This document shows, piece after piece, positions 4,130 through 55,892 of a stretch of DNA of 64,000 nt. Under the pieces are notes generated by a model. The model was not told the origin of the DNA. It made no database searches and saw only the letters and a program-made list of their open reading frames with translations. The stretch's first letter is position 1; each line of letters begins with the position of its first letter. The translations under genes and the position numbers were made by a program. Source of the stretch: Octopus vulgaris (Eukaryota); NCBI GenBank assembly GCA_951406725.2, contig OX597816.1, forward strand, positions 156,612,001 to 156,676,000. Reading direction: 5' to 3'.

Positions 4130-5195
4130 GCAGGTTTCATTATAAAAATGCAAATGACATTGACGTGAAACTCAAAAGATTTATGTCCAAAATGCGAGCC
4201 TTATCACTTAAGTTTGTCCCAGACAAAAAAAACAATACACGCGAAAACATTATACCTCGACATAGCAGAATCATATTTAGACAAAAAATAAAGGTCTCAC
4301 ATCACTTAAATAAGAACTTAATGACAACTAGAAGTCCAACCATAAAAAAGACAATTTTATAAATGAAAAATACAACCCAGCTGCTTCCCGGAAAATAGAA
4401 AAGGAAGCCAGGCAGTTGCAAAAATAAAACCGAAACCTAAGGCCGTTTACAAATTTGCAAGAGAATCTGCTTCTGTACGCTACAAGGTAGGGCACTGTTT
4501 CAAAAACGATGTTGACCCCATGAAGTTAAGCGAACTTTTCAGTAAACATTTCTAAAATGTTTTCACTTCTCCACTTAGAAGTATACAAATAAGCAAGCCA
4601 GTTGAGTTCTTCAACTTCGCAAATCTACACAGGGAAGAGACAGCCCTCGATTACATCGGTATAAAAGAAAATGTAATATTGGCCATTTGAGTTTAATTCA
4701 TACTCAGCGGCGTGCCTAGCGGTTTTCCAGCTGTTCTTTTACAAATATGCAAAACAGCTCTTATAAACGACTGCAGAAACTTTACCACAGTGGCCTAGGC
4801 TTCGACAACAACTATCATAGTTGACATATCGCAATTTGCGTGATCGTTGTATCGTCAGAGAAGAAGTGGAATGGTGCATAACTTTTTGTTTTTGGAAGAT
4901 ATATAAGATATACCAAGTAGTCGCATCCAGCTAATGTTGGTGGTGGCTTTCTCAGATATACGTTCAGTCATTCAGAGAGTCGGTCTCAATGGGTATGCAG
5001 ATAATACAAAGGTATCTCAATCAGTCAAGGACCTGGAAATGAGCTGAAGTAGGCAACATACAATTCAATGATGTGACGTTTCAAGTATTCTTATGTACAT
5101 CCACGAGCAGATGGCAGTCAGAATTACAAAGGACCAGGGTGCATTTTGTGTCTGCATCACTACATGTCTTGGGAATATTCATGAGTGATGCTATT
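4130..5195 (+). pseudogene. Heavily degraded CR1-group LINE ORF2 remnant
   Basis: Broken translation parallels the LINE at 22630-25345 (KLSELFSKHF..VFTSPL; GFPAVLL; GYADNTKVSQ ~ SYADDTKVSQ). Confidence 0.7.
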
Positions 5196-5214
5196 CGTTC
5201 CTTTTTCGAGGGAC

Positions 5215-5606
5215 AAACACGGCGCCTAATAATTAACGTATCATGAAAGAAAGGGAAAAGGACGGCAGATATAGTGACCTGAAATTTGAGATCTTTTAAG
5301 ATGTGGTAGTTGCGAGGATCAAATATAAAATTTGTTCCTGTTGTCATTGGAGCACTGAGTGCAATGTCTCCCAACCTGAAGACACATCTGGGCACTTGAG
5401 AAATACCCTCCAATCTCGGTGTATTGCAAAAAGTAGGATTTACTTGGAACTGTATGCATACTTCATAAAGTACGGTTCATCTGAAGTCCTTGTTGTGACT
5501 TGGCAGAAAGTACAATCCCCCGGTAAATACAATATCTTCAATCAACATCACAATATTGAATACTATGCGACATCTTAAACAACAACAACAATAATAATTA
5601 TAATAA
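5215..5606 (+). mobile_element. 3' end of RLE-type LINE (R4/Dong-like) with (AAC/AAT)n tail
   Basis: EREKDGRYSDLKFEI...VPVVIGAL...LQK..LLGT motif typical of a restriction-like endonuclease C-terminus. Confidence 0.7.
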
Positions 5607-10100: not shown

Positions 10101-10925
10101 GTTTTACAAGTTTTTGCAGTTCCAGTGATGGCTTGGTTCAGTAGTCTTCAAATTAGCTTCTTCCTTTCTGCTTTTGAGAAGCCTAATTTCTCAAAATTGT
10201 TATTTAAGTAATGTATTACATATCGCAGTGCACCAATAATTACCTGAACTTGTAATCTAGATAGAGTAACTTCAGATTTCTCAATAGTTCATTCATCTTC
10301 AGCTTTATGTTAACATCCGCTGGGCAGCTGATTTCCACAGCTGTATACAATTTCTTTTCTATTTCCAAAATTAATACATCAGCTTTCATGTGTTTACATT
10401 TTATTGAGGTTTTCACTGGGACATTCAAGCGGTACACATATTTATTAAGAGTGACTATGGCTTCTTCCATACTGTGAGTTCTTATTTCTTTGTTTTCGAG
10501 ATTATTCTTCCTACAGATTTCATTATAGAGTGTCCTAGCTACAACACTATGTCTCATCGGTAGATGATACTGTGATGACATCTTCAGACTACTGCTTATG
10601 ATGTAGGTGATATCTTTGGTGTTAGCTCCAAAAAGTCTGCATCGTTTGTCACATTTTACTGCTTTTCCTTCATCTCTTTTCTACATCAGGTATTCGGTTG
10701 ATATTTCCTGTTTCTGGATAGCAAACTCATACATATCAAAGTGGAAGGTAGTAAGTAATTCGTTTCTTGGTCCATGATAGACTACTATGATGATCAATAT
10801 TACTGCCATCTTGGAGTTTTCTACTAACATTTGCATACATGGTCTTCCACTGATATGTGCTCATCCTTTTATCTGCTGATATGTTGTGGTAGCGTCGTGC
10901 TACTTGCTTGAGCACGTATTTAATG
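10101..10925 (-). mobile_element. RLE-type LINE (R4/Dong-like) fragment
   Basis: AIQ.QEI..CRL...MRHSVVARTLY...EISCPADVN..L.YLDYKF: zinc knuckle plus RLE. Confidence 0.75.
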
Positions 10926-22589: not shown

Positions 22590-22629
<40 letters not shown>

Positions 22630-22633
<4 letters not shown>

Positions 22634-25345
22634 TCTGATTTTGATTTTGATTTTTCCAGTTTCAGCTAATGAGCTGTGGCCATGCTGGGGCACCGCCATT
22701 TGGTTTGCGGTTTGCTACACGGTTTTACCTCACGGATGCTTTTTAGCAAACGCCATCTGATGCATGAGAGAGTTCGATGCAGCTGCCCTCATCTGCACCT
22801 CCTGCCGTGAAGTTGGTTCATCCGGGACACCTGACAGGAAGAGATCCAGTCCTACTTTAAAGACATCCGCATCTACACCATGCAGGTCCCTCAGGTTCTT
22901 CGGGAGGATATTGAAGAGCCGTGGGCCTCTGAAGCCCAGGCTATCACAATATCTTGTCCTACATCTTGATGGCAAATTTGGAGTCCTTGGTACTACGCAG
23001 TGGCGTCCGGTTCTGGCATTTGTGTGACTCTCGATGCCAAAGTCTGGGACAAGACCTTCCAGGATCTTCCAGATATATATTATGGCATATCTTTCTCGCC
23101 TACGCTCCAGGGAATAGAGCTTTAATCTCTTGAGTCTCTCCCAGTAGCTCATATGCTGCACAGAGGCTATCTTCTTCGTGTAGCTTCATTGGATCGCCTC
23201 AAGTTCTGTGATCAACTTGACACTGGATGGTGACCATAGCTGAGAGCAATAGTCAAAGTGGCTTAGGACAAGTGTCTTCCAGAGGACCATCATGGTTTCT
23301 TGTTCTCTTGTTCTAAAGGTTCTAAGAATCCATCCAGCCAGCCGTCTACATTTCATTGTCAGTTTAGCAACATGTACATGAAAGGTCGCGTCATCACTCA
23401 TGTGAATACCCAGGTCACGCACTAATTGTGCCTCTGGGATTGCAATCCCTCCGGGTCCAGTGTATTCATTGGGTATTGCATTCAGTTTTGCATGCTGATA
23501 GTATAAAGCTTGAAACTTTTCAGCATTGAACTGCATGCTATTCTTTTCAGCCCACTTGTATATTTCGTCCAGCTCACATTGCAGGTGCTTAGTGTATTCA
23601 GGGTTCTGTATTGCCTGTGAAACTTTTGTATCATCTGCATAACTTGTGATCGTGGCTCTCTGCGTGGCTGAGGGCATGTCTGAGAGGGCCATTATGAACA
23701 GTAGTGGTCCCAAAACAGTGCCCTGCGGAACACCGCTCACTATTTGCTACCACCTGACTTCTATTCTTCAGAAAGTCATGAAGCCATTCTCCTAGTTTTC
23801 CAACTATGCCAAGATCACGCAGCTTGTGACATATCATTCCATGATCGACTTTATCGAAGGCCTTTGCGAAGTCGAGATATATGACTTCCACATTTGAGTG
23901 GTTGAGCAGTTGTTTCAGCACCCAGTCATAGTGCTGCAGGAGCTGAGTTAAGCAGCTTCTTCTTGGTCGGAAACCATGTTGGGTGTCAGGCAGCAAGTCA
24001 TTTTCTTCAAGGAAGATGATTAGTTTCCTCCTGACTATTCGTTCCATGACCTTGCTGATGTGTGAGGTCAGAGAGATAGGTCTGTAGTTCTTGGCCTCCG
24101 CTCTGCTACCTCCTTTATGAATAGGGCATATTTTACCTTCCTTCAGTTTTCTTGGAAGTTTGCCAGCTGCAAGGAAGCTCTGAAAGAGGAACTGCAGTGG
24201 TCTTGCTAGGACTCTCTTACATACTTTTAGGAGGATTGCCGGGAATCCATCGGGGCCAATAGCTGAGTCTGTTTTCATTTCATCTATAGCCTTTATTACA
24301 TCGTCTTCCTTTATATCGATGTAATTTATCGTCGCCGCCTCTGATTCTATATCTGCAGTGGTAAAGAAGTCAGTTGGATTGCTGATTTGGAAATGCCCAA
24401 GGGGTGGAGTGAAAACACTCTTGAAGTGTTCATTCAGTATTTCACTTACCCTCATTGGTTTTCCTGTGAGTGTGCCATCCTTTTCAAGGAGTGGCCCTAT
24501 CCTACAGTGCACTGTAGCTGTTTCTTTGGCATACCTGTGGAAAGCTCTGGGGTTAGTTTTTATGTTGTCTATAGCCAAGGCTTCTTTGTCTGCTCTTTCC
24601 TTCTCATGGGAGAGTTGCAGACAATTTTCAATTTCCAACAGTTTTATTTTCACTGCTTTCAATTTGTTTGTTTAGGCGATTTGAAATTTTTGTACGCCGT
24701 CTCATTAAAATTTTCCTCTCTCTGGGGATTTTGTTCTTGTGTACAGTGGCCTTTCTCTCTGGGACACATTTGTAGCATATGGCTTGCATTACAGACATGA
24801 ATTGTTGAAGTATCATGTCGATGTCCGGCGAGGAGAGACATTCAGGCCAGTTTTGTTTGAGGATCTCTTTCTCAATTTGTTTCCAGTTTGCCTTATTGAA
24901 GTTCAAGCTGGAAAGATTCTGAGGGTTTCTTGTAGGCTGCATGTCCGTGCTCTCTTTTGGCCCGTACATGGTCAGCTCTACCATGTTGTGATCCGAGAGT
25001 AGTGTCGGTGTCACTTTCACATTATGGATGAGATCCATATTATTTGTGAAGCAGAGATCCAGTGTGTTACCTGCTCTGGTTGGTTGGAGTATTACTTGCT
25101 CCATGTACAGGGTGTTGATGAGGTTCAGGAGGGACCTCGCCTGTCCTCGTTCACATCTTGTCATTCCTGGGAGAGAAAGGCCCTCGGGCCATCTGACATT
25201 GGGTAGATTGAAGTCTCCCATGAGAAGTACACTTATGTGTTGTTCTAATGTGGTTAGAACTTCTTCTATTTTTAAAAGGCAGTCCTCAAACTTGCCCATA
25301 TGACTTGGGGAATCTGGAGGACGATATGTAGCACACACAACTACA
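22630..25345 (-). mobile_element. CR1-group LINE, 5'-truncated, disrupted APE-EN + RT ORF2, (AAAATC)n tail
   Basis: EN motifs YRPPDS, GDFN, LDLCF, SDH (ORF 24628..25338); RT NYRPISL, QHGFR, DFAKAFDKV, GVPQGTVLGP, YADDTK; frameshifts near 24660 and 23746, stop at 23186. Confidence 0.95.
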
Positions 25346-25356
25346 TCAAGTTGCCT

Positions 25357-25457
<101 letters not shown>

Positions 25458-25483
25458 CACATATACATATATATTTATATATT

Positions 25484-25602
25484 GCTCACGGCAGGAAATA
25501 CAGATGAGGGCAGCAGCATCAAACTTCCCCATTCACCAAATGCCACATATCAGAAGGGACATTAGACAATGGTGTAACAGAGGCAACGGTGGTGCCCCAT
25601 CA
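25484..25602 (+). mobile_element. 3' end fragment of a related CR1-group LINE
   Basis: [19 protein letters not shown] vs [19 protein letters not shown] in the adjacent LINE; GGTGCCCCA 3' motif. Confidence 0.8.
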
Positions 25603-25778: not shown

Positions 25779-26324
25779 CGATTGGTGTATACATATACGG
25801 ATTTAATAAAAAGAATTGTCTAAAACATATAGTAGTACATTCAAAACATAGAGTTATAGAAATATAAAAGTATATATGAATGTTAAAAATATACAAGGAC
25901 AAATAAATATATAAATATATAAATATAATGGAGGATAGGTAAAAATATAGATGTGGATAATAAAATATAGAAAGATATTTCGTTTAAAAATTATGGAATG
26001 TGGGGAGTAATAAATGTTTCTGGTACTATACGTAAATGAAAAGGAATACTTTTCATTTAAGTATGGTACGAAAAACCCTTTCTAAACATTTATTACTCAC
26101 TGTATTCCATTACTTTTAAACGAAATGTCTTTCCATATTTTATCATCCTCATCTATATTTTTACCTATACTTCATTATATTTTTAAATATGAATATATTT
26201 ATTTGTCCTTGCATATTTTCAACATTCACATATACATTAATATTTCTATAACTCTATCTTTTGAATGCATTAATATGTTTTAGACAATTCGTTTTCTTCA
26301 AACTGTATATGTACACTCCAATTG
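25779..26324. repeat. ~545-bp imperfect palindrome (fold-back)
   Basis: ~270-bp arms align as reverse complements; centre AAATGAAAAG-GAATA-CTTTTCATTT. Confidence 0.9.
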
Positions 26325-26429: not shown

Positions 26430-26625
26430 AAAGAATGAAGAACGAACACAAAAAATACAACAATGCGAGGACGTGGTACATGTAAGGTATTAGCAGACGC
26501 TCAGGGAAGGAAAGAAAAAATGGTTTAAAGTTTCGAGCAAGGCTCTTCTTCAGAATCAGCGGAGTCCAATAGAAAGGTAGACGGAGGAAAAAAATCGCAA
26601 ACGATTCACGTGGTTACATTTTGAA
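26430..26625 (-). mobile_element. Penelope-like pseudo-LTR fragment with degenerate minimal hammerhead
   Basis: Minus strand CTGAAGA-A-GAGC-CTT-GCTC-GAAAC at ~26530-26553. Confidence 0.6.
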
Positions 26626-30482: not shown

Positions 30483-30627
30483 AGGAAGAGTTTACGAAAA
30501 AAACAAAAGACGAAGACAGGTGGTGTACAAAACAAGCAGATGTATTAGTATAACCATCAGGAATAGAAAAAGTCTTTTACGTTTCGAGCCTACGCTCTTT
30601 TCTAGAAGAGCGTAGGCTCGAAACGTA
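30483..30627 (-). mobile_element. PLE pseudo-LTR ending in a perfect 22-bp hairpin
   Basis: Matches 45391-45470 in reverse; TACGTTTCGAGCCTACGCTCTT-TTCTAG-AAGAGCGTAGGCTCGAAACGTA. Confidence 0.75.
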
Positions 30628-30644
30628 TATATATATATATATAT

Positions 30645-31330
30645 TTGTAGATAAAGGAAACAGTCATCGCGATATAAACCACCGAGGATACATGGGAATT
30701 GGTCAGCCATTTCTAATGGAATATAAATACCGACCAAATCAGCTAATTCATCTGAGTCAGAAAACCCCATCAGCATATCAAAGCAGTCAGGTCTACCTTT
30801 ACGAACACAAAGTTTGTTATCAAATTTAATAATAGATTTTCCAGCTGTGAAAACAACATCAATTTCATCCCAGGGGAGTCAGCTTTATTGTGCACGAACC
30901 ATAGGGCTTTATGAAGGATGGTGGTGTTGACAGAGGAATAATAACTATAGATGTCAAGCTGGATAAATTTAGTGTTTAGTTTATTACCGATAGAGTTGAA
31001 ACCTTCCACAACTTATATTAAGTTTAAATTTTTTTTGTCATCGACGGAATGTACTTATCAAGAATATTTTTGCTAAGTATACCGATATCAGAGGGGCAGA
31101 TAAGATTGCAAGTTGGGTGATTGAAGAAGTTAGGTTTGTGGTCCTTTAAGACAAAATGGGTTTGCTTTGGGCTTATTAGCTTCTAGGTTAGCCTTTCTGA
31201 AGGCATTTTACTAGTAGTCTTTAAGTGATACAGATTAACAGTTTTATCCGATTGAACACGTAGGCCTTCCATGCTGTTCATTTCTTTGCTAATATTATGT
31301 ACATATCTTAGATGTTTTTTTGTTAAGGGT
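30645..31330 (-). mobile_element. Penelope-like element RT fragment (possibly Naiad-type), frameshifted
   Basis: VLKDHKPNFFNHPTCNLICPS..IG.LSKNILD; FIQLDIYSYYSS; MGFSDSDELADLVGIYI; GLYRDD. Confidence 0.85.
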
Positions 31331-35655: not shown

Positions 35656-36126
35656 ATATGAATCAATCTGTACTCTTTATTTATATAGATTCTTTCGGTG
35701 GGAAATCTGATATTACGTTTCGATCTGATTTGGTCTCATCAGGTACAAAAATCTCAGTCATTCAAATTTGAGCCGGTATATCAAGTTACAATACAGAAAT
35801 CGGTGACAATAATATGTACTGATTCTTGGTTTGTTGTATGTCCCATCTTTTATAACATATCAACTATAGATCTAATCATGATATAATATTTTATGGATCT
35901 TGATGGTATATAGTATTTTATGGCATATTTCTTAATAATATATTTCAGAATTATATCTAACTTTTACAAGAAGAGGAGTTACTATGTCTTGGTAGACTTA
36001 CCAGGCCCAAACATGGAAGATTTTGACATCGATCCTGTTGACCTTTATGAAATATGTAGCTTACAAGAAGATTCTGAGCATTCTTGGAGTAATATTAATA
36101 TGTTTTTATATAACTTGACATAAAAA

Positions 36127-38469: not shown

Positions 38470-38642
38470 GGCAACATGTGGAACGAGGACGGCCAGATTG
38501 GAGGAGTATTAAGAAACTGCAGAACTTCACTGATGATAGAAACCTCTGAATGAACCGTCCTTGTTTTTTTTTCCTGTCCTTCTATGTATCGTTTTACTGT
38601 CCGGATGTTTTGTTGTCGCCCGTTACGTTCTTGTTCCTTTTT
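38470..38642 (+). mobile_element. PLE-like repeat family B, internally deleted copy
   Basis: GGCCAGATTGGAG...CTGATGATAGAAA...GAATGAACCGTCCTTG...TGTCCGGATGTTTTG matches the reverse complement of 38850-39030. Confidence 0.7.
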
Positions 38643-38844
38643 TATATATACATATAGCGGCGTACGTACACATTTAGTCTCCCGTATATCACTATATATA
38701 TATATATACAATATTTTATAATTATGAGTATAATTATAATTAGGGTTCATCAAAAATTTGCTTTACCAAATACTGAACTTTAGAAATAGCAGCCAAAGTA
38801 CCTTAGTTATTTCTTCTACTATAAGAAGAAACTCAAGAAGAAAA

Positions 38845-39300
38845 TACAAAATGGGACAAGAATGCAAAACATCCGGACAGCTAGGTGATAAAATAAGGGA
38901 CAACAAAACATCCAGATAGACGATACAAAAAACAATGATGGGTCATTCGAAGCTTTCTATCCTCAGTCAAGAACCGGATCATCCTCGCAATTTCGGCTGA
39001 TTAATCTTGAGATTGTTCCCATCTGGCCAGCGCCAAGGAAAAACTAAGCTAAGAGCATTAGATTCCTTGGAAGAAAGCAGCGAATGTATACAAAAAAAAG
39101 GACAGAAAAAGCAGACGATGTTACACAAATATAAATACAAATTACAATAAAAATTATAATGATAATAATAATAATAACAACAGGACATAACAACAGTTGT
39201 CTTTCGACTGGGGACGAACCGAATTCAGCTGGCGTGTGTGGATATGAATCCTTACGACAGAGATACAGAACTTTCGCAAGCACAGGGAAGAATATCTATG
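38845..39300 (-). mobile_element. PLE-like repeat family B with permuted hammerhead motif
   Basis: Homologous to 54570-54912 (AAGCTAAGAGCATTAGATT, AACAACAG.TGTCTTTCGACT); hammerhead core strands at 38960-39013. Confidence 0.7.
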
Positions 39301-39490: not shown

Positions 39491-39496
<6 letters not shown>

Positions 39497-39827
39497 CGAA
39501 ACACGCATGTAGTCGAGCCGGGGACAGCTGATGAAGGGGAACGTTCCGTGTGTTGTTTGTCCTGCGTTCTGTTTTTTCGTTGTCAAAAAAAGTCCGTTCC
39601 CTTGTTTTTATGTTTTCGTTTCTCGTTGAGTTCTACGTCTATTTGTGGTTTCCTGTACTCACATAAATATATTTATATATGCATGTATATATACATGTAG
39701 ATGTAGGTACGTACATATATGTATGTATGTATGCATATATTTTATTTATTACATTATTGTATGACTGAGCACCCTCGCGTCGTTTCGTTTCGCTTCTTTC
39801 CTTTCTCCCAGTATGCTTTTATATATA
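39491..39827 (+). repeat. Repeat family C, copy 1 (PLE pseudo-LTR-like)
   Basis: Near-identical direct repeat of 40661-41000. Confidence 0.9.
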
Positions 39828-40351: not shown

Positions 40352-41000
40352 ACTCCTCTTCATCTCCATCTCCCTCACGGCTGAGTCGACTTTACTTCCT
40401 TTTCACTCCAGCCTGCTTCAAGTCAAGACGACTTATTCCTGCGCTCTGAATTTTTTTTCCTCGTTTTGTCCTGTTTTTATTCTTTATGTGTACTGTATTT
40501 TTCATATTTGCATTTTTATTTTGTATTCGTATTTTTATTTGTATTGCTTTTACGTCGTGTTCTTGTCACATTTTTTCTTTCCTTGTTTTTAGCCCTCTGC
40601 AAGGGAATTTTATTTAATTCCCTTGCAGGAAGGACCGGTCCAACGAGCGTGTCCAGTCCTTACCTTCGAAACACGCATGGAGTTGAGCCGGGGACAGCTG
40701 ATGAAGGGGAATGTTTCGTGTGTTGTTTGTCCTGCGTTCTGTTTTTTCGTTGTCAAAAAAAGTCCGTTCCCTTGTTTTTATGTTTTCGTTTCTCGTTGAG
40801 TTCTACGTCTATTTGTGGTGTCCTGTACTCACATATATATATTTATATATGCATGTATATATACATGTAGATGTAGGTACTTACATATATGTATGTATGT
40901 ATGCATATATTTTATTTATTACATTATTGTATGAATAAGCGCCCTCGCGTCGTTTCGTTTCGTTTCGTTTCTTTCCTTTCTCCCAGTATGCTTTTATATA
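40225..41000 (+). repeat. Repeat family C, copy 2, including the upstream hairpin and complete permuted hammerhead motif
   Basis: Direct repeat with 39491-39827; 13-bp hairpin at 40597-40628. Confidence 0.75.
40635..40710 (+). ncRNA. Candidate hammerhead ribozyme with non-circularly permuted strand order (GUC -> GAAA -> CUGAUGA)
   Basis: Stem III GCGTGT/ACACGC (6 bp); GUC 40651-40653; stem I CAGTCCTT/GGGGACAG (1 mismatch, 2 G-U); GAAA 40668-40671; CTGATGA 40698-40704; weak stem II GGGG/CCTT. Confidence 0.55.
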
Positions 41001-41476
41001 TATATATACATATATATATAATCTGTACGACTCATTTACACTTTTACTCTTTCTTTTAGCTCCCTACACGCTTTCTTCTTTCTTTCCACTTTTCCCTCCT
41101 CTCGCTGCCCCTCTCCCACATATCTTGCCCTTTCTTTCATTCTCATCACTTTCCCTCTTTTATCACCCTTGTACCTTTCTTTACGTTCCTTTCCTTTCTT
41201 TTCCTCTCCTTCTCGTCCTTCACTAATTCTTCAATCCCTCTGTCCTCTACCTCTCTCCTCTCCTTCAACTTGCCTAGTGTTCCGCCAAGCCTGACCTTTC
41301 TTTCGTGGTTCGACTTCCTTCTGTGTAGCATCTCTTATATTCATTCTCATGCCTGCCATGCCTTTGTCCCTGCCGTAAGGCTTCACTCCACACAAGCGAG
41401 CATAATTTAATTCGCTTTTAGTCGAAAGTCACCTGTTGTTAATGTCTTGTTGTTTGTATTTGTAATATATATATAT

Positions 41477-54537: not shown

Positions 54538-54569
54538 CGAAAAAAATTCTGTCAATGACCAGCATATTA

Positions 54570-54912
54570 AAAAATACAAGAACGCAATAGAGGAAAATAA
54601 CGCATTCCGACGGATAGACGATACAAAAGCGGACAGGAGAAACAGTAATTAGGAGGAAAGGAAAAAAGAAAGACGGGTCTTTCGTGGACTTCTTTCCTCA
54701 GTCAAGTTTAGCAGAAGTCCATACAGCTTCGAGCAGTTAGACTTGAGACAGTTCGATCTGGTTGCCCTCCAAAATGTTTAAGCTAAGAGCATTAGATTTT
54801 TTATGTAAGAAGGCTAGCGAATGTGCGCTGCAGCAAAGATAAAACTCGGAGAACATAGTGCACAATTACAAATACAATGAACAAGAAAATAACAACAGGT
54901 GTCTTTCGACTG
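54570..54912 (-). mobile_element. PLE-like repeat family B, diverged copy
   Basis: Homologous to 38845-39212; permuted hammerhead strands at 54695-54749. Confidence 0.7.
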
Positions 54913-54924
54913 AATATATATATA

Positions 54925-55217
54925 TTGATTGATTGATTGATTGATTGATTCTAGTTTCAGCCCATGAGCTGTGGCCATGCTGGGGCACCGCCATTTGGTG
55001 TTGCTACTTGGTTTTGAGGGCATGTCTGAGAGGGCCATTATGAACAGTAGTGGTCCCAAAACAGTGCCCTGCGGAACACCGCTCACTATTTGTGTGTTAA
55101 TGGAAGTGGCCCAATTGGCTACTACCACCTGCTCTGCTACCACCTTTATGAATAGGGCATATTTTACCTTCCTTCAGTTTTTTGGAAGTTTGCCAGCTGC
55201 AAGGAAGCTCTGAAAGA

Positions 55218-55269
<52 letters not shown>

Positions 55270-55555
55270 GCAGTGGTAAAGAAGTCAGTTGGATTGGTGA
55301 TTTGGAAATCCGAGGGTGGAGTGAAAACACTCTTGAATTGCTCATTCAGTATTTCACTTACCCTCATTGGTTTTCCTGTGAGTGTGCCATCCTTTTCAAG
55401 GAGTGGCCCTATCCTACAGTGCACCGTAGCTGTTTCTTTGGCATACCTGTAGAAAGCTCTGGGGTTAGATTTTATGTTGTCTATAGCCAGGCTTCTTTGT
55501 TTGCTCTTTCCTTTTCATGGAGAGTTGCAGACATTTTTCAATTTCAACAGTTTTA
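54925..55555 (-). mobile_element. Multiply internally deleted copy of the CR1-group LINE, (AATC)n tail
   Basis: Four blocks matching ~22655-22726, ~23669-23756, ~24100-24191 and ~24350-24645. Confidence 0.9.
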
Positions 55556-55627
55556 TATATATATATAAGCATGAGTTAGTAATAAAATCTCAAGAAGCGA
55601 TAGAGTAGTAACGTATCTTAAACATTG

Positions 55628-55892
55628 GAGCGAGTTATCACATCAAAGTGGCAGGTGAATGTTACTACTAGTTTAACCGCAGGCAGATTCTCTGCCAGCT
55701 GGATTTTGATGCAACGTTCTGAATCCTTTATATACAATACGTCGCTAGCATAGGGAGCGAATTCCTACTAACCTCCATAAGCGTGTATATGCAGGATGCA
55801 GAACGTTGCATGAAAAACCAGTTGGCCGAGAAAATGCTTGGGGTTAAACTAGTAGTCAAATTCAGCTGCCACTTTGATTTAGCAACTCGCTC
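55628..55892. mobile_element. Fold-back/MITE-like element with ~100-bp imperfect TIRs
   Basis: GAGCGAGTT..ATCAAAGTGGCAG..ACTACTAGTTTAACC..ATGCAACGTTCTG is mirrored on the right. Confidence 0.75.

Follow-up and report, generated by a model that had tools for sequence, protein, structure and literature searches.

Comparison of the copies of a non-coding repeat of Octopus vulgaris, here called family B, provides good support for a hammerhead ribozyme wiring that is apparently undescribed. Intact family-B copies are predicted from a model of their fold to form a split-core hammerhead that would cut its own RNA right after GUC. The copy considered here lies in the window, the whole stretch of 64,000 nucleotides analysed, and belongs to subfamily S4. 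We consider it quite probable that this S4 copy is the decayed remnant of a non-coding retroelement, intact copies of which carry the self-cutting, split-core hammerhead. The structure in this explanation is better supported than catalysis, and the replication route is the least supported part.

Blastn matches of relatives cover the minus strand from 54913 down to 54576–54564, which defines the S4 copy; an (ATTG)n/(TA)n run precedes it. Immediately upstream, at 54914–55568, are pieces of an endonuclease/RT LINE that match a longer copy at 22617–25485 on the minus strand. The S4 copy shares 88% identity with the consensus built from its 30 nearest loci, compared with 91–95% for the other loci, and its best match elsewhere in the genome is only 84%, indicating that it has no close sister. 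In the 2.8 Gb genome searched, first-look searches gave 1,943 and 4,184 candidates for the family-B repeat, and the family-B core pattern has 5,462 exact matches and the reversed control pattern none. From 217 profile hits, 172 were near full length and 160 distinct copies were kept; 154 of these could be parsed and 6 could not. The 160 copies clustered into 11 groups, and the 9 groups with at least two members (158 copies) gave the subfamily consensuses. An alignment of 48 copies consists of 46 random picks, one S5 copy and the S4 copy.

The strands of the family-B core are arranged in the order of the stem II 5′ strand, the cleavage block, the GAAA block and the stem I 3′ strand joined to CUGAnGA. 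A preliminary description of the S4 copy had proposed a permuted hammerhead, with the cleavage block, the GAAA block and CUGAnGA in this order, and the family comparison bears out this order, which is permuted in a non-circular way. The five bases preceding GAAA have their partner strand, GGGCA at 54767–54763 in the S4 copy, upstream of the cleavage block, and so the wiring differs from that of type SGC hammerheads. The bases directly after CUGAnGA can form only 0–2 of 5 stem II pairs in all 9 consensuses and pair instead 60–70 nt upstream, suggesting that the backbone is open between the positions that we take to be A9 and G10.1 of the hammerhead core. Because the partner strand of stem II is placed before the cleavage block, the CUGAnGA strand would be cut off from stem II and held by the outer helices. 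The upstream stem II is 87.5% paired across the 48 sequences, with 15–20 two-sided changes in each of three columns. Its subfamily versions include GGGCA/TGCCC, GGCTG/CAGCC and GGCCT/AGGCC, S6 pairs 4 of 5 positions, and the G10.1–C11.1 pair is retained in all 9 consensuses. Stem III is 92.8% paired, with two-sided changes in 4 of its 5 pairs across the 48 copies. The distal pair of stem I occurs as U-A, A-U or U-G and is the only one of the six that varies; the other five are invariant, partly because the search patterns fixed them. The UC at the cleavage block, present in 150 of 155 copies, was likewise partly selected by these patterns. Position N7 of CUGAnGA is free to vary (G in 64, A in 42, T in 37 and C in 11 of 154 copies), and the linker from stem I to stem II is 5 nt long.

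The core is surrounded by two outer helices, X and Y, an interaction helix and a putative kink-turn. The outer part of helix X has 92.4% of its cells paired and keeps 5 of 6 pairs in the S4 copy, and the inner part shows 6–7 of 7 pairs in the 8 consensuses scored and is present in the MFE structure of the second family-B copy in the window, the 38953 copy. Hairpin Y shows 2 double changes in 4 bp and is decayed in the S4 copy; its register is less certain. In the interaction helix, CCAGA, which follows the stem II 5′ strand directly, is paired with TCTGG, which immediately precedes the stem I 3′ strand; this helix forms 4–5 of 5 pairs in all 9 consensuses and is 84.5% paired on 3 columns. A kink-turn-like element is placed between the interaction helix and stem III. 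The kink-turn consensus is a 3-nt bulge followed by tandem G-A/A-G pairs. Family B has GA on both strands together with a 3-nt bulge, and a bend is predicted there; subfamily S5 has TA instead of GA on one of the two strands.

Table. Coordinates of the family-B copies, of the strands of the predicted fold in the S4 copy and of the family A repeat in the window.
Feature	Position	Strand	Basis or remark
Family-B non-coding repeat, 5′-truncated solo copy, subfamily S4	54564..54913	minus	blastn against relatives
Second family-B copy (38953 copy), subfamily S1	38830..39210 (ends approximate)	minus	GAAA intact, predicted cut 39011/39010
Outer closing helix X, 5′ strand CATTCG	54818..54823	minus	pairs with the 54679–54684 columns
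Inner helix X, 5′ strand, pairs with the bases that directly follow CUGAGGA	54807..54814	minus	consensus pairing
Hairpin Y between X and stem II	54770..54805	minus	covarying A/T-rich arms
Stem II, 5′ strand GGGCA, upstream of the cleavage block; G10.1 at 54767	54763..54767	minus	covariation
Interaction helix, 5′ strand CCAGA	54757..54761	minus	consensus pairing
GA of predicted kink-turn, non-bulged strand	54753..54754	minus	134/155 copies, 8/9 consensuses
Stem III, 5′ strand ACTGT, and C17; predicted cut between 54747 and 54746	54747..54752	minus	covariation
Stem I, 5′ strand TCAAGT	54741..54746	minus	6/6 in all 9 consensuses
Stem II, 3′ strand TGCTC (consensus TGCCC; one G-U in the S4 copy)	54731..54735	minus	alignment
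Core GAA and stem III 3′ strand; private lesions A15.1>G at 54727 and A15.3>T at 54725	54723..54730	minus	
3-nt bulge and GA of predicted kink-turn	54718..54722	minus	GA in 141/155 copies, bulge variable
Interaction helix, 3′ strand TCTGC (consensus TCTGG)	54711..54715	minus	one pair lost through G>C at 54711
Stem I, 3′ strand ACTTGA, and core CUGAGGA	54695..54707	minus	CTGAGGA at 54701–54695
Helix X, 3′ strands: inner 54694–54687, outer 54684–54679	54679..54694	minus	one private mismatch each
9-bp helix, 54721–54713 with 54693–54685	54685..54721	minus	private to the S4 copy, would block the fold
Family A repeat, unrelated in sequence, same wiring	40609..40715	plus	descriptor and consensus

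The minus-strand letters at 54761–54685 are as the preliminary description gave them, its gapped blocks reading ACTGTC and GAAGCTGT when closed up, and the homology to the 38953 copy from which it argued extends over 169 nt at 70% identity (E 7e-9). The stem I strands TCAAGT/ACTTGA pair in 6 of 6 positions, and the 16.2–15.2 pair is G-C in place of A-U. Both had been read as changes of this copy, whereas both belong to its subfamily consensus. Since they separate subfamily consensuses, they are real compensatory changes rather than events in the S4 copy. The compensatory changes in the predicted stems I and III thus arose between source subfamilies. The description had anticipated ACAGTC/GAAACTGT as the consensus; three other subfamilies have this form, and the nearest one has ACTGTC/GAAACAGT. 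It did not include the U-U mismatch at 16.3–15.3 or the upstream half of the fold at 54763–54823. The G at position 15.1 is indeed present and is private to the S4 copy: the subfamily consensus restores GAAA rather than retaining GAAG, 46 of the 47 genome matches to the closest core pattern contain GAAA, the S4 copy being the sole GAAG, and A occupies 15.1 in 59 of 61 family-B copies from blast-picked loci. The loss of A15.1 supports the suggestion already made that the S4 copy is probably inactive, and the copy is likely to be decayed and inactive as a ribozyme. Natural hammerheads altered at 15.1–16.1 can still cleave, and so inactivity is a probable rather than a proven state.

In a de novo scan of the 9 subfamily consensuses, the first-ranked of 29 helices was stem III, in which double changes occur in 4 of 5 pairs, and the second was the upstream stem II (3 of 5). 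When the columns were shuffled, one such helix appeared in 30 of 2000 trials and two in 2 of 2000. The full model fitted to the 48 copies has 92.2% of its cells paired and 128 cells with two-sided changes, compared with 20–41% and 7–18 cells for slid registers. Since the subfamilies are related to each other, these double changes count as about 8–10 events, not hundreds. RNAalifold recovers stem I only, and single-sequence folding finds helix X in the 38953 copy and the competing 9-bp helix in the S4 copy, and the core in neither; neither method can draw pseudoknots. An Rfam scan, whose models assume circular permutations, returned no hammerhead among 129 hits at E<=1. A minimal type I reading, with CUGAGGA...CGAA followed by the downstream GUC, was rejected because the consensus is CGAAT instead of CGAAA, and a type III reading with the same downstream GAA was ruled out by the same CGAAT.

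The same wiring recurs in repeats of unrelated sequence. Family A at 40.6 kb, with 2,451 genome candidates, contains X, Y, the upstream stem II, the interaction helix, GA/GA and stems III and I of 6 bp each, all in the family-B order. Its copies in the window lie at 40560–41002 and 39491–39827 on the plus strand, the latter starting at a (TA)n run 7–8 nt after its predicted cut. A relaxed descriptor gives 3 matches in the window, all in families A and B, and 3 in 30 shuffles. The published 3′ ends of Naiad_Obim and Naiad_Ovul, in the portion available, show the same helix order by eye. The Naiad-type tail of the octopus genome is near-identical to the published Octopus Naiad sequences and has 278 genome matches; the consensus of 30 loci fetched from these has the same layout and a weak helix X. 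Blastn detects no similarity of either family A or the Naiad tail to family B. The kink-turn GA pairs are also found in family A and the Naiad tail, and in all three unrelated families the core bases and the variable N7 fit the hammerhead pattern. The available part of the supplement of Craig et al. (2021, PMC8557442) flags Naiad_Ovul as 'HHR_half_core', and the paper, in the parts available, describes Naiads as having no canonical hammerhead and cephalopod Naiads as long inactive. Naiads, as described there, resemble family B in having (TA)n targets and tandem and inverted insertions. Family B differs in encoding no protein, and, unlike the cephalopod Naiads so described, it has near-identical young units. 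In view of the missing sequence similarity, the link between them is structural only.

The anatomy of family B is that of a putative non-autonomous Penelope-like element (PLE) or retrozyme. Copies are inserted at (TA)n, inverted pairs occur, and the 3′ ends are nearly fixed while the 5′ ends vary. Locus L178, the one array examined in full, consists of 2.9 units of 843 bp arranged head to tail, which are 99.8% identical and bounded by (TA)n runs, and its unit contains no ATG ORF above 62 codons. Subfamily S5 (L065, L088, L178) is the youngest, with about 900 matches, many of them tandem at 840–865 bp; its stem III has an additional compensatory pair, and there is a partial duplication within its hairpin Y. 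In four contig sets, whose status as RNA is a guess, one contig joins the unit end to the unit start, as a circle and a genomic tandem alike would. Genome-wide, 235 matches fit a 5′ end at the predicted cut; 28 of the 30 inspected truly start there, and the remaining 2 are full copies with a C17 change. Among the matches listed, 24 loci from the first 63 Mb of one contig are flanked by (TA)n; 1 of them starts no more than 14 nt upstream of the cut, 4 start at the cut and 19 start at +2 to +15 (p about 6e-6 under a naive uniform null that ignores microhomology). Since +2 and +9, where there is AT microhomology, have as many 5′ starts as the cut itself, the distribution is a step and not a peak. 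With a control pattern for the cut site, S5 accounts for 94 of the 100 matches listed, leaving 6 candidates to set against 37 cut-site matches over the same span. The step in the 5′ starts hints at cleavage in vivo and is the trace that would be expected of a linear RNA whose 5′ end lies at C17/U1.1, and stalling of the reverse transcriptase (RT) at the structure could contribute to it.

A mobilising partner was sought among the PLEs of the genome. The Hydra-type PLEs that were fetched, which are active and young, have no family-B motif, and their UTRs show no similarity to the unit. The PLE beside L043 was rejected as a partner, being a separate, very young C-terminal GIY-YIG element that has no 3′ CUGAnGA and no similarity to the unit. 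Among 18 long PLE loci, family-B copies are found only nested, in 3 of the 18. The genome also contains a very young 717-aa Hydra-like PLE (L211–L240, L288) with 22,329 first-look candidates, 98–99% identity and a 2.59-kb tandem period; CUGAnGA is absent from its 3′ region, although canonical hammerheads have been reported for Hydra elements. A Penelope-like RT fragment lies at 30492–30878 on the minus strand of the window, and its relatives include young 899-aa and 778-aa C-terminal GIY-YIG elements that are often tandem.

Four other explanations must be weighed against the self-cutting, split-core hammerhead. The preliminary description implied a type SGC hammerhead, its block order S, G and CUGAnGA being that of SGC, with AGAAGT/ACTGCT as stem II and a 9-bp helix as an on/off switch. 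Both helices can be drawn in the S4 copy, the stem with 5 of 6 pairs, and the 9-bp helix appears in its MFE and centroid folds. Conservation fails for both, whereas stems I and III are kept among copies. This stem II reaches 5 of 6 pairs in only 1 of 154 copies and 0–3 of 6 in the 9 consensuses, and across the 48 copies 32.6% of its cells are paired, three of the six pairs being formed in 1–5 copies. The 9-bp helix is complete in 1 of 154 copies, the S4 copy, and has 8 of 9 pairs in two more; it is 58.8% paired in the 48-copy alignment, and its 4 cells with two-sided changes are no excess over shuffles, so that covariation for a regulatory switch is lacking. The two rest on substitutions private to this copy, at 54732 and 54688 in the stem and at 54721 and 54688 in the 9-bp helix, and no sister subfamily that fixes both is seen among the 47 closest core matches. 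The shortage of stem II pairs directly after CUGAnGA in every consensus also speaks against SGC, and this explanation is highly improbable. Both helices are accidents of the S4 copy, and the dominance of the 9-bp helix in its predicted fold adds to the case that the copy is dead rather than switched. Still less credible is the idea that no structure is conserved and that co-inherited, subfamily-diagnostic changes are complementary by chance: the independent events are few, and 129 single column pairs likewise combine a double change with pairing in all 9 consensuses, but stacked helices with so many double changes arise in only 2 of 2000 shuffles and the design is repeated in unrelated families.

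It is also conceivable, although unlikely, that the fold is conserved without being a free-standing catalyst, cutting only when bound to protein or serving mainly as a recognition handle for an RT. The PLE hammerhead of the anole, a lizard, requires protein for cleavage, shows no read ends at its cut and need not cleave for insertion in vitro; kink-turns are protein-binding motifs, and thermodynamic folds of family B do not reach the core. Against this, three unrelated families match the hammerhead pattern in all core bases and in the variable N7, and genomic 5′ ends step up at the predicted cut. The helices might instead form between two RNAs or two tandem units, so that no single chain would be knotted. 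The element is tandem, covariation is blind to cis and trans, and small PLE hammerheads are known to act as dimers; but the stem III of family B is not palindromic, cis cleavage is seen in SGC ribozymes that have the same crossings, and the A9/G10.1 break would remain even in a dimer, making this a very unlikely account.

A plausible mechanism can be outlined for the split-core hammerhead. Outer helix X and hairpin Y would bring A9 and G10.1 together without the backbone joining them, and the helix linking the distal ends of stems I and II would run through the kink-turn into stem III. Self-cleavage may trim tandem read-through transcripts to unit length, about 840 nt, and a Penelope-like RT supplied in trans may copy this RNA into (TA)n. 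Linear cleaved RNA would give copies that start at or after the cut, and re-ligated circular or uncleaved RNA would give tandem arrays and copies that run through the cut, such as the S4 copy. After insertion, the S4 copy would have lost A15.1 together with single pairs in stem III and in each of three peripheral helices, and would have gained by chance the 9-bp helix that competes with the fold. We lean slightly towards the wider proposal that this is a seventh hammerhead wiring, open at A9/G10.1, clamped by the outer helices and the kink-turn and self-cleaving in vivo, that it is the ribozyme that Naiads reportedly lacked, and that it drives a still-active, non-coding, retrozyme-like family by way of an RNA circle and the RT of another element.

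Among known ribozymes, types SGC and CSG come closest to family B. In the available part of their description (Eckert et al. 2023, PMC10085705), the cleavage block and the GAAA block precede the stem I 3′ strand and CUGAnGA, there are two pseudoknots, and a helix joins the distal ends of stems I and II. This interaction helix, whose place the family-B interaction helix occupies, was validated in SGC ribozymes, including SGC-2 oligos. The stem I-to-II linker is short in both systems, typically 3 nt in type SGC. Family B differs in that its stem II 5′ strand lies upstream instead of 0–2 nt after CUGAnGA, so that 'block C' is split, in its extra helices X and Y, in its two-stranded, kink-turn-like link to stem III, and in residing in an animal genome, the SGC hammerheads having been found only in metatranscriptomes according to that part of the paper. 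The same text counts six permutations on the assumption that the A9/G10.1 block is uninterruptible and notes never more than 1–2 inserted bases there in known alignments. Types I, II and III with a stem I–II pseudoknot (Perreault et al. 2011, PMC3088659) share the core bases and the base-paired stem I–II contact with family B, but form a planar three-way junction with a continuous CUGAnGA–stem II strand; the core insertions reported in the available part of that paper are single bases or short. In a literature search made mostly without subscription papers, no hammerhead split between A9 and G10.1 and no permuted hammerhead in cephalopod repeats was found, and the available portions of the literature contain no tested precedent for such a break. 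In the passages available, the main text of a 2026 octopus repeat annotation makes no reference to ribozymes. The non-LTR retrozymes, as far as the available part of the preprint goes (bioRxiv 10.64898/2026.07.22.740005), resemble family B in their non-coding tandem units with one hammerhead each, their solo copies and a proposed dependence on PLEs, and the family-B unit length falls in their reported range of 51–972 bp. Their hammerheads are of type I, found by type I descriptors that are unable to match the family-B wiring, and family B has no such type I hammerhead.

If intact copies cleave, the count of six permutations would be incomplete, since one of the three 'unbreakable' blocks would be broken in nature; non-circular hammerheads would extend beyond metatranscriptomes and rank with the most abundant ribozymes in an animal genome; and the absence of hammerheads reported for Naiads would be an artefact of the descriptors. 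The family-B subfamilies are ready-made natural compensatory variants, and the S4 copy matters only as a decayed data point.

Several other features are seen in the window. A family-B-related copy at 38480–38710 on the plus strand lacks the cleavage and GAAA blocks and stands tail to tail with the 38953 copy. CUGAnGA...CGAAAC motifs at 35715–35760 and 26525–26570, both on the minus strand, resemble the minimal type I hammerheads of ordinary Penelope-like elements. Fragments at 5081–5476 and 10240–10680 on the minus strand resemble a C-terminal restriction-like endonuclease region and presumably belong to R2/Hero-type LINEs. Self-complementary, foldback stretches occupy 25781–26322 (540 bp) and 55628–55892 (265 bp).
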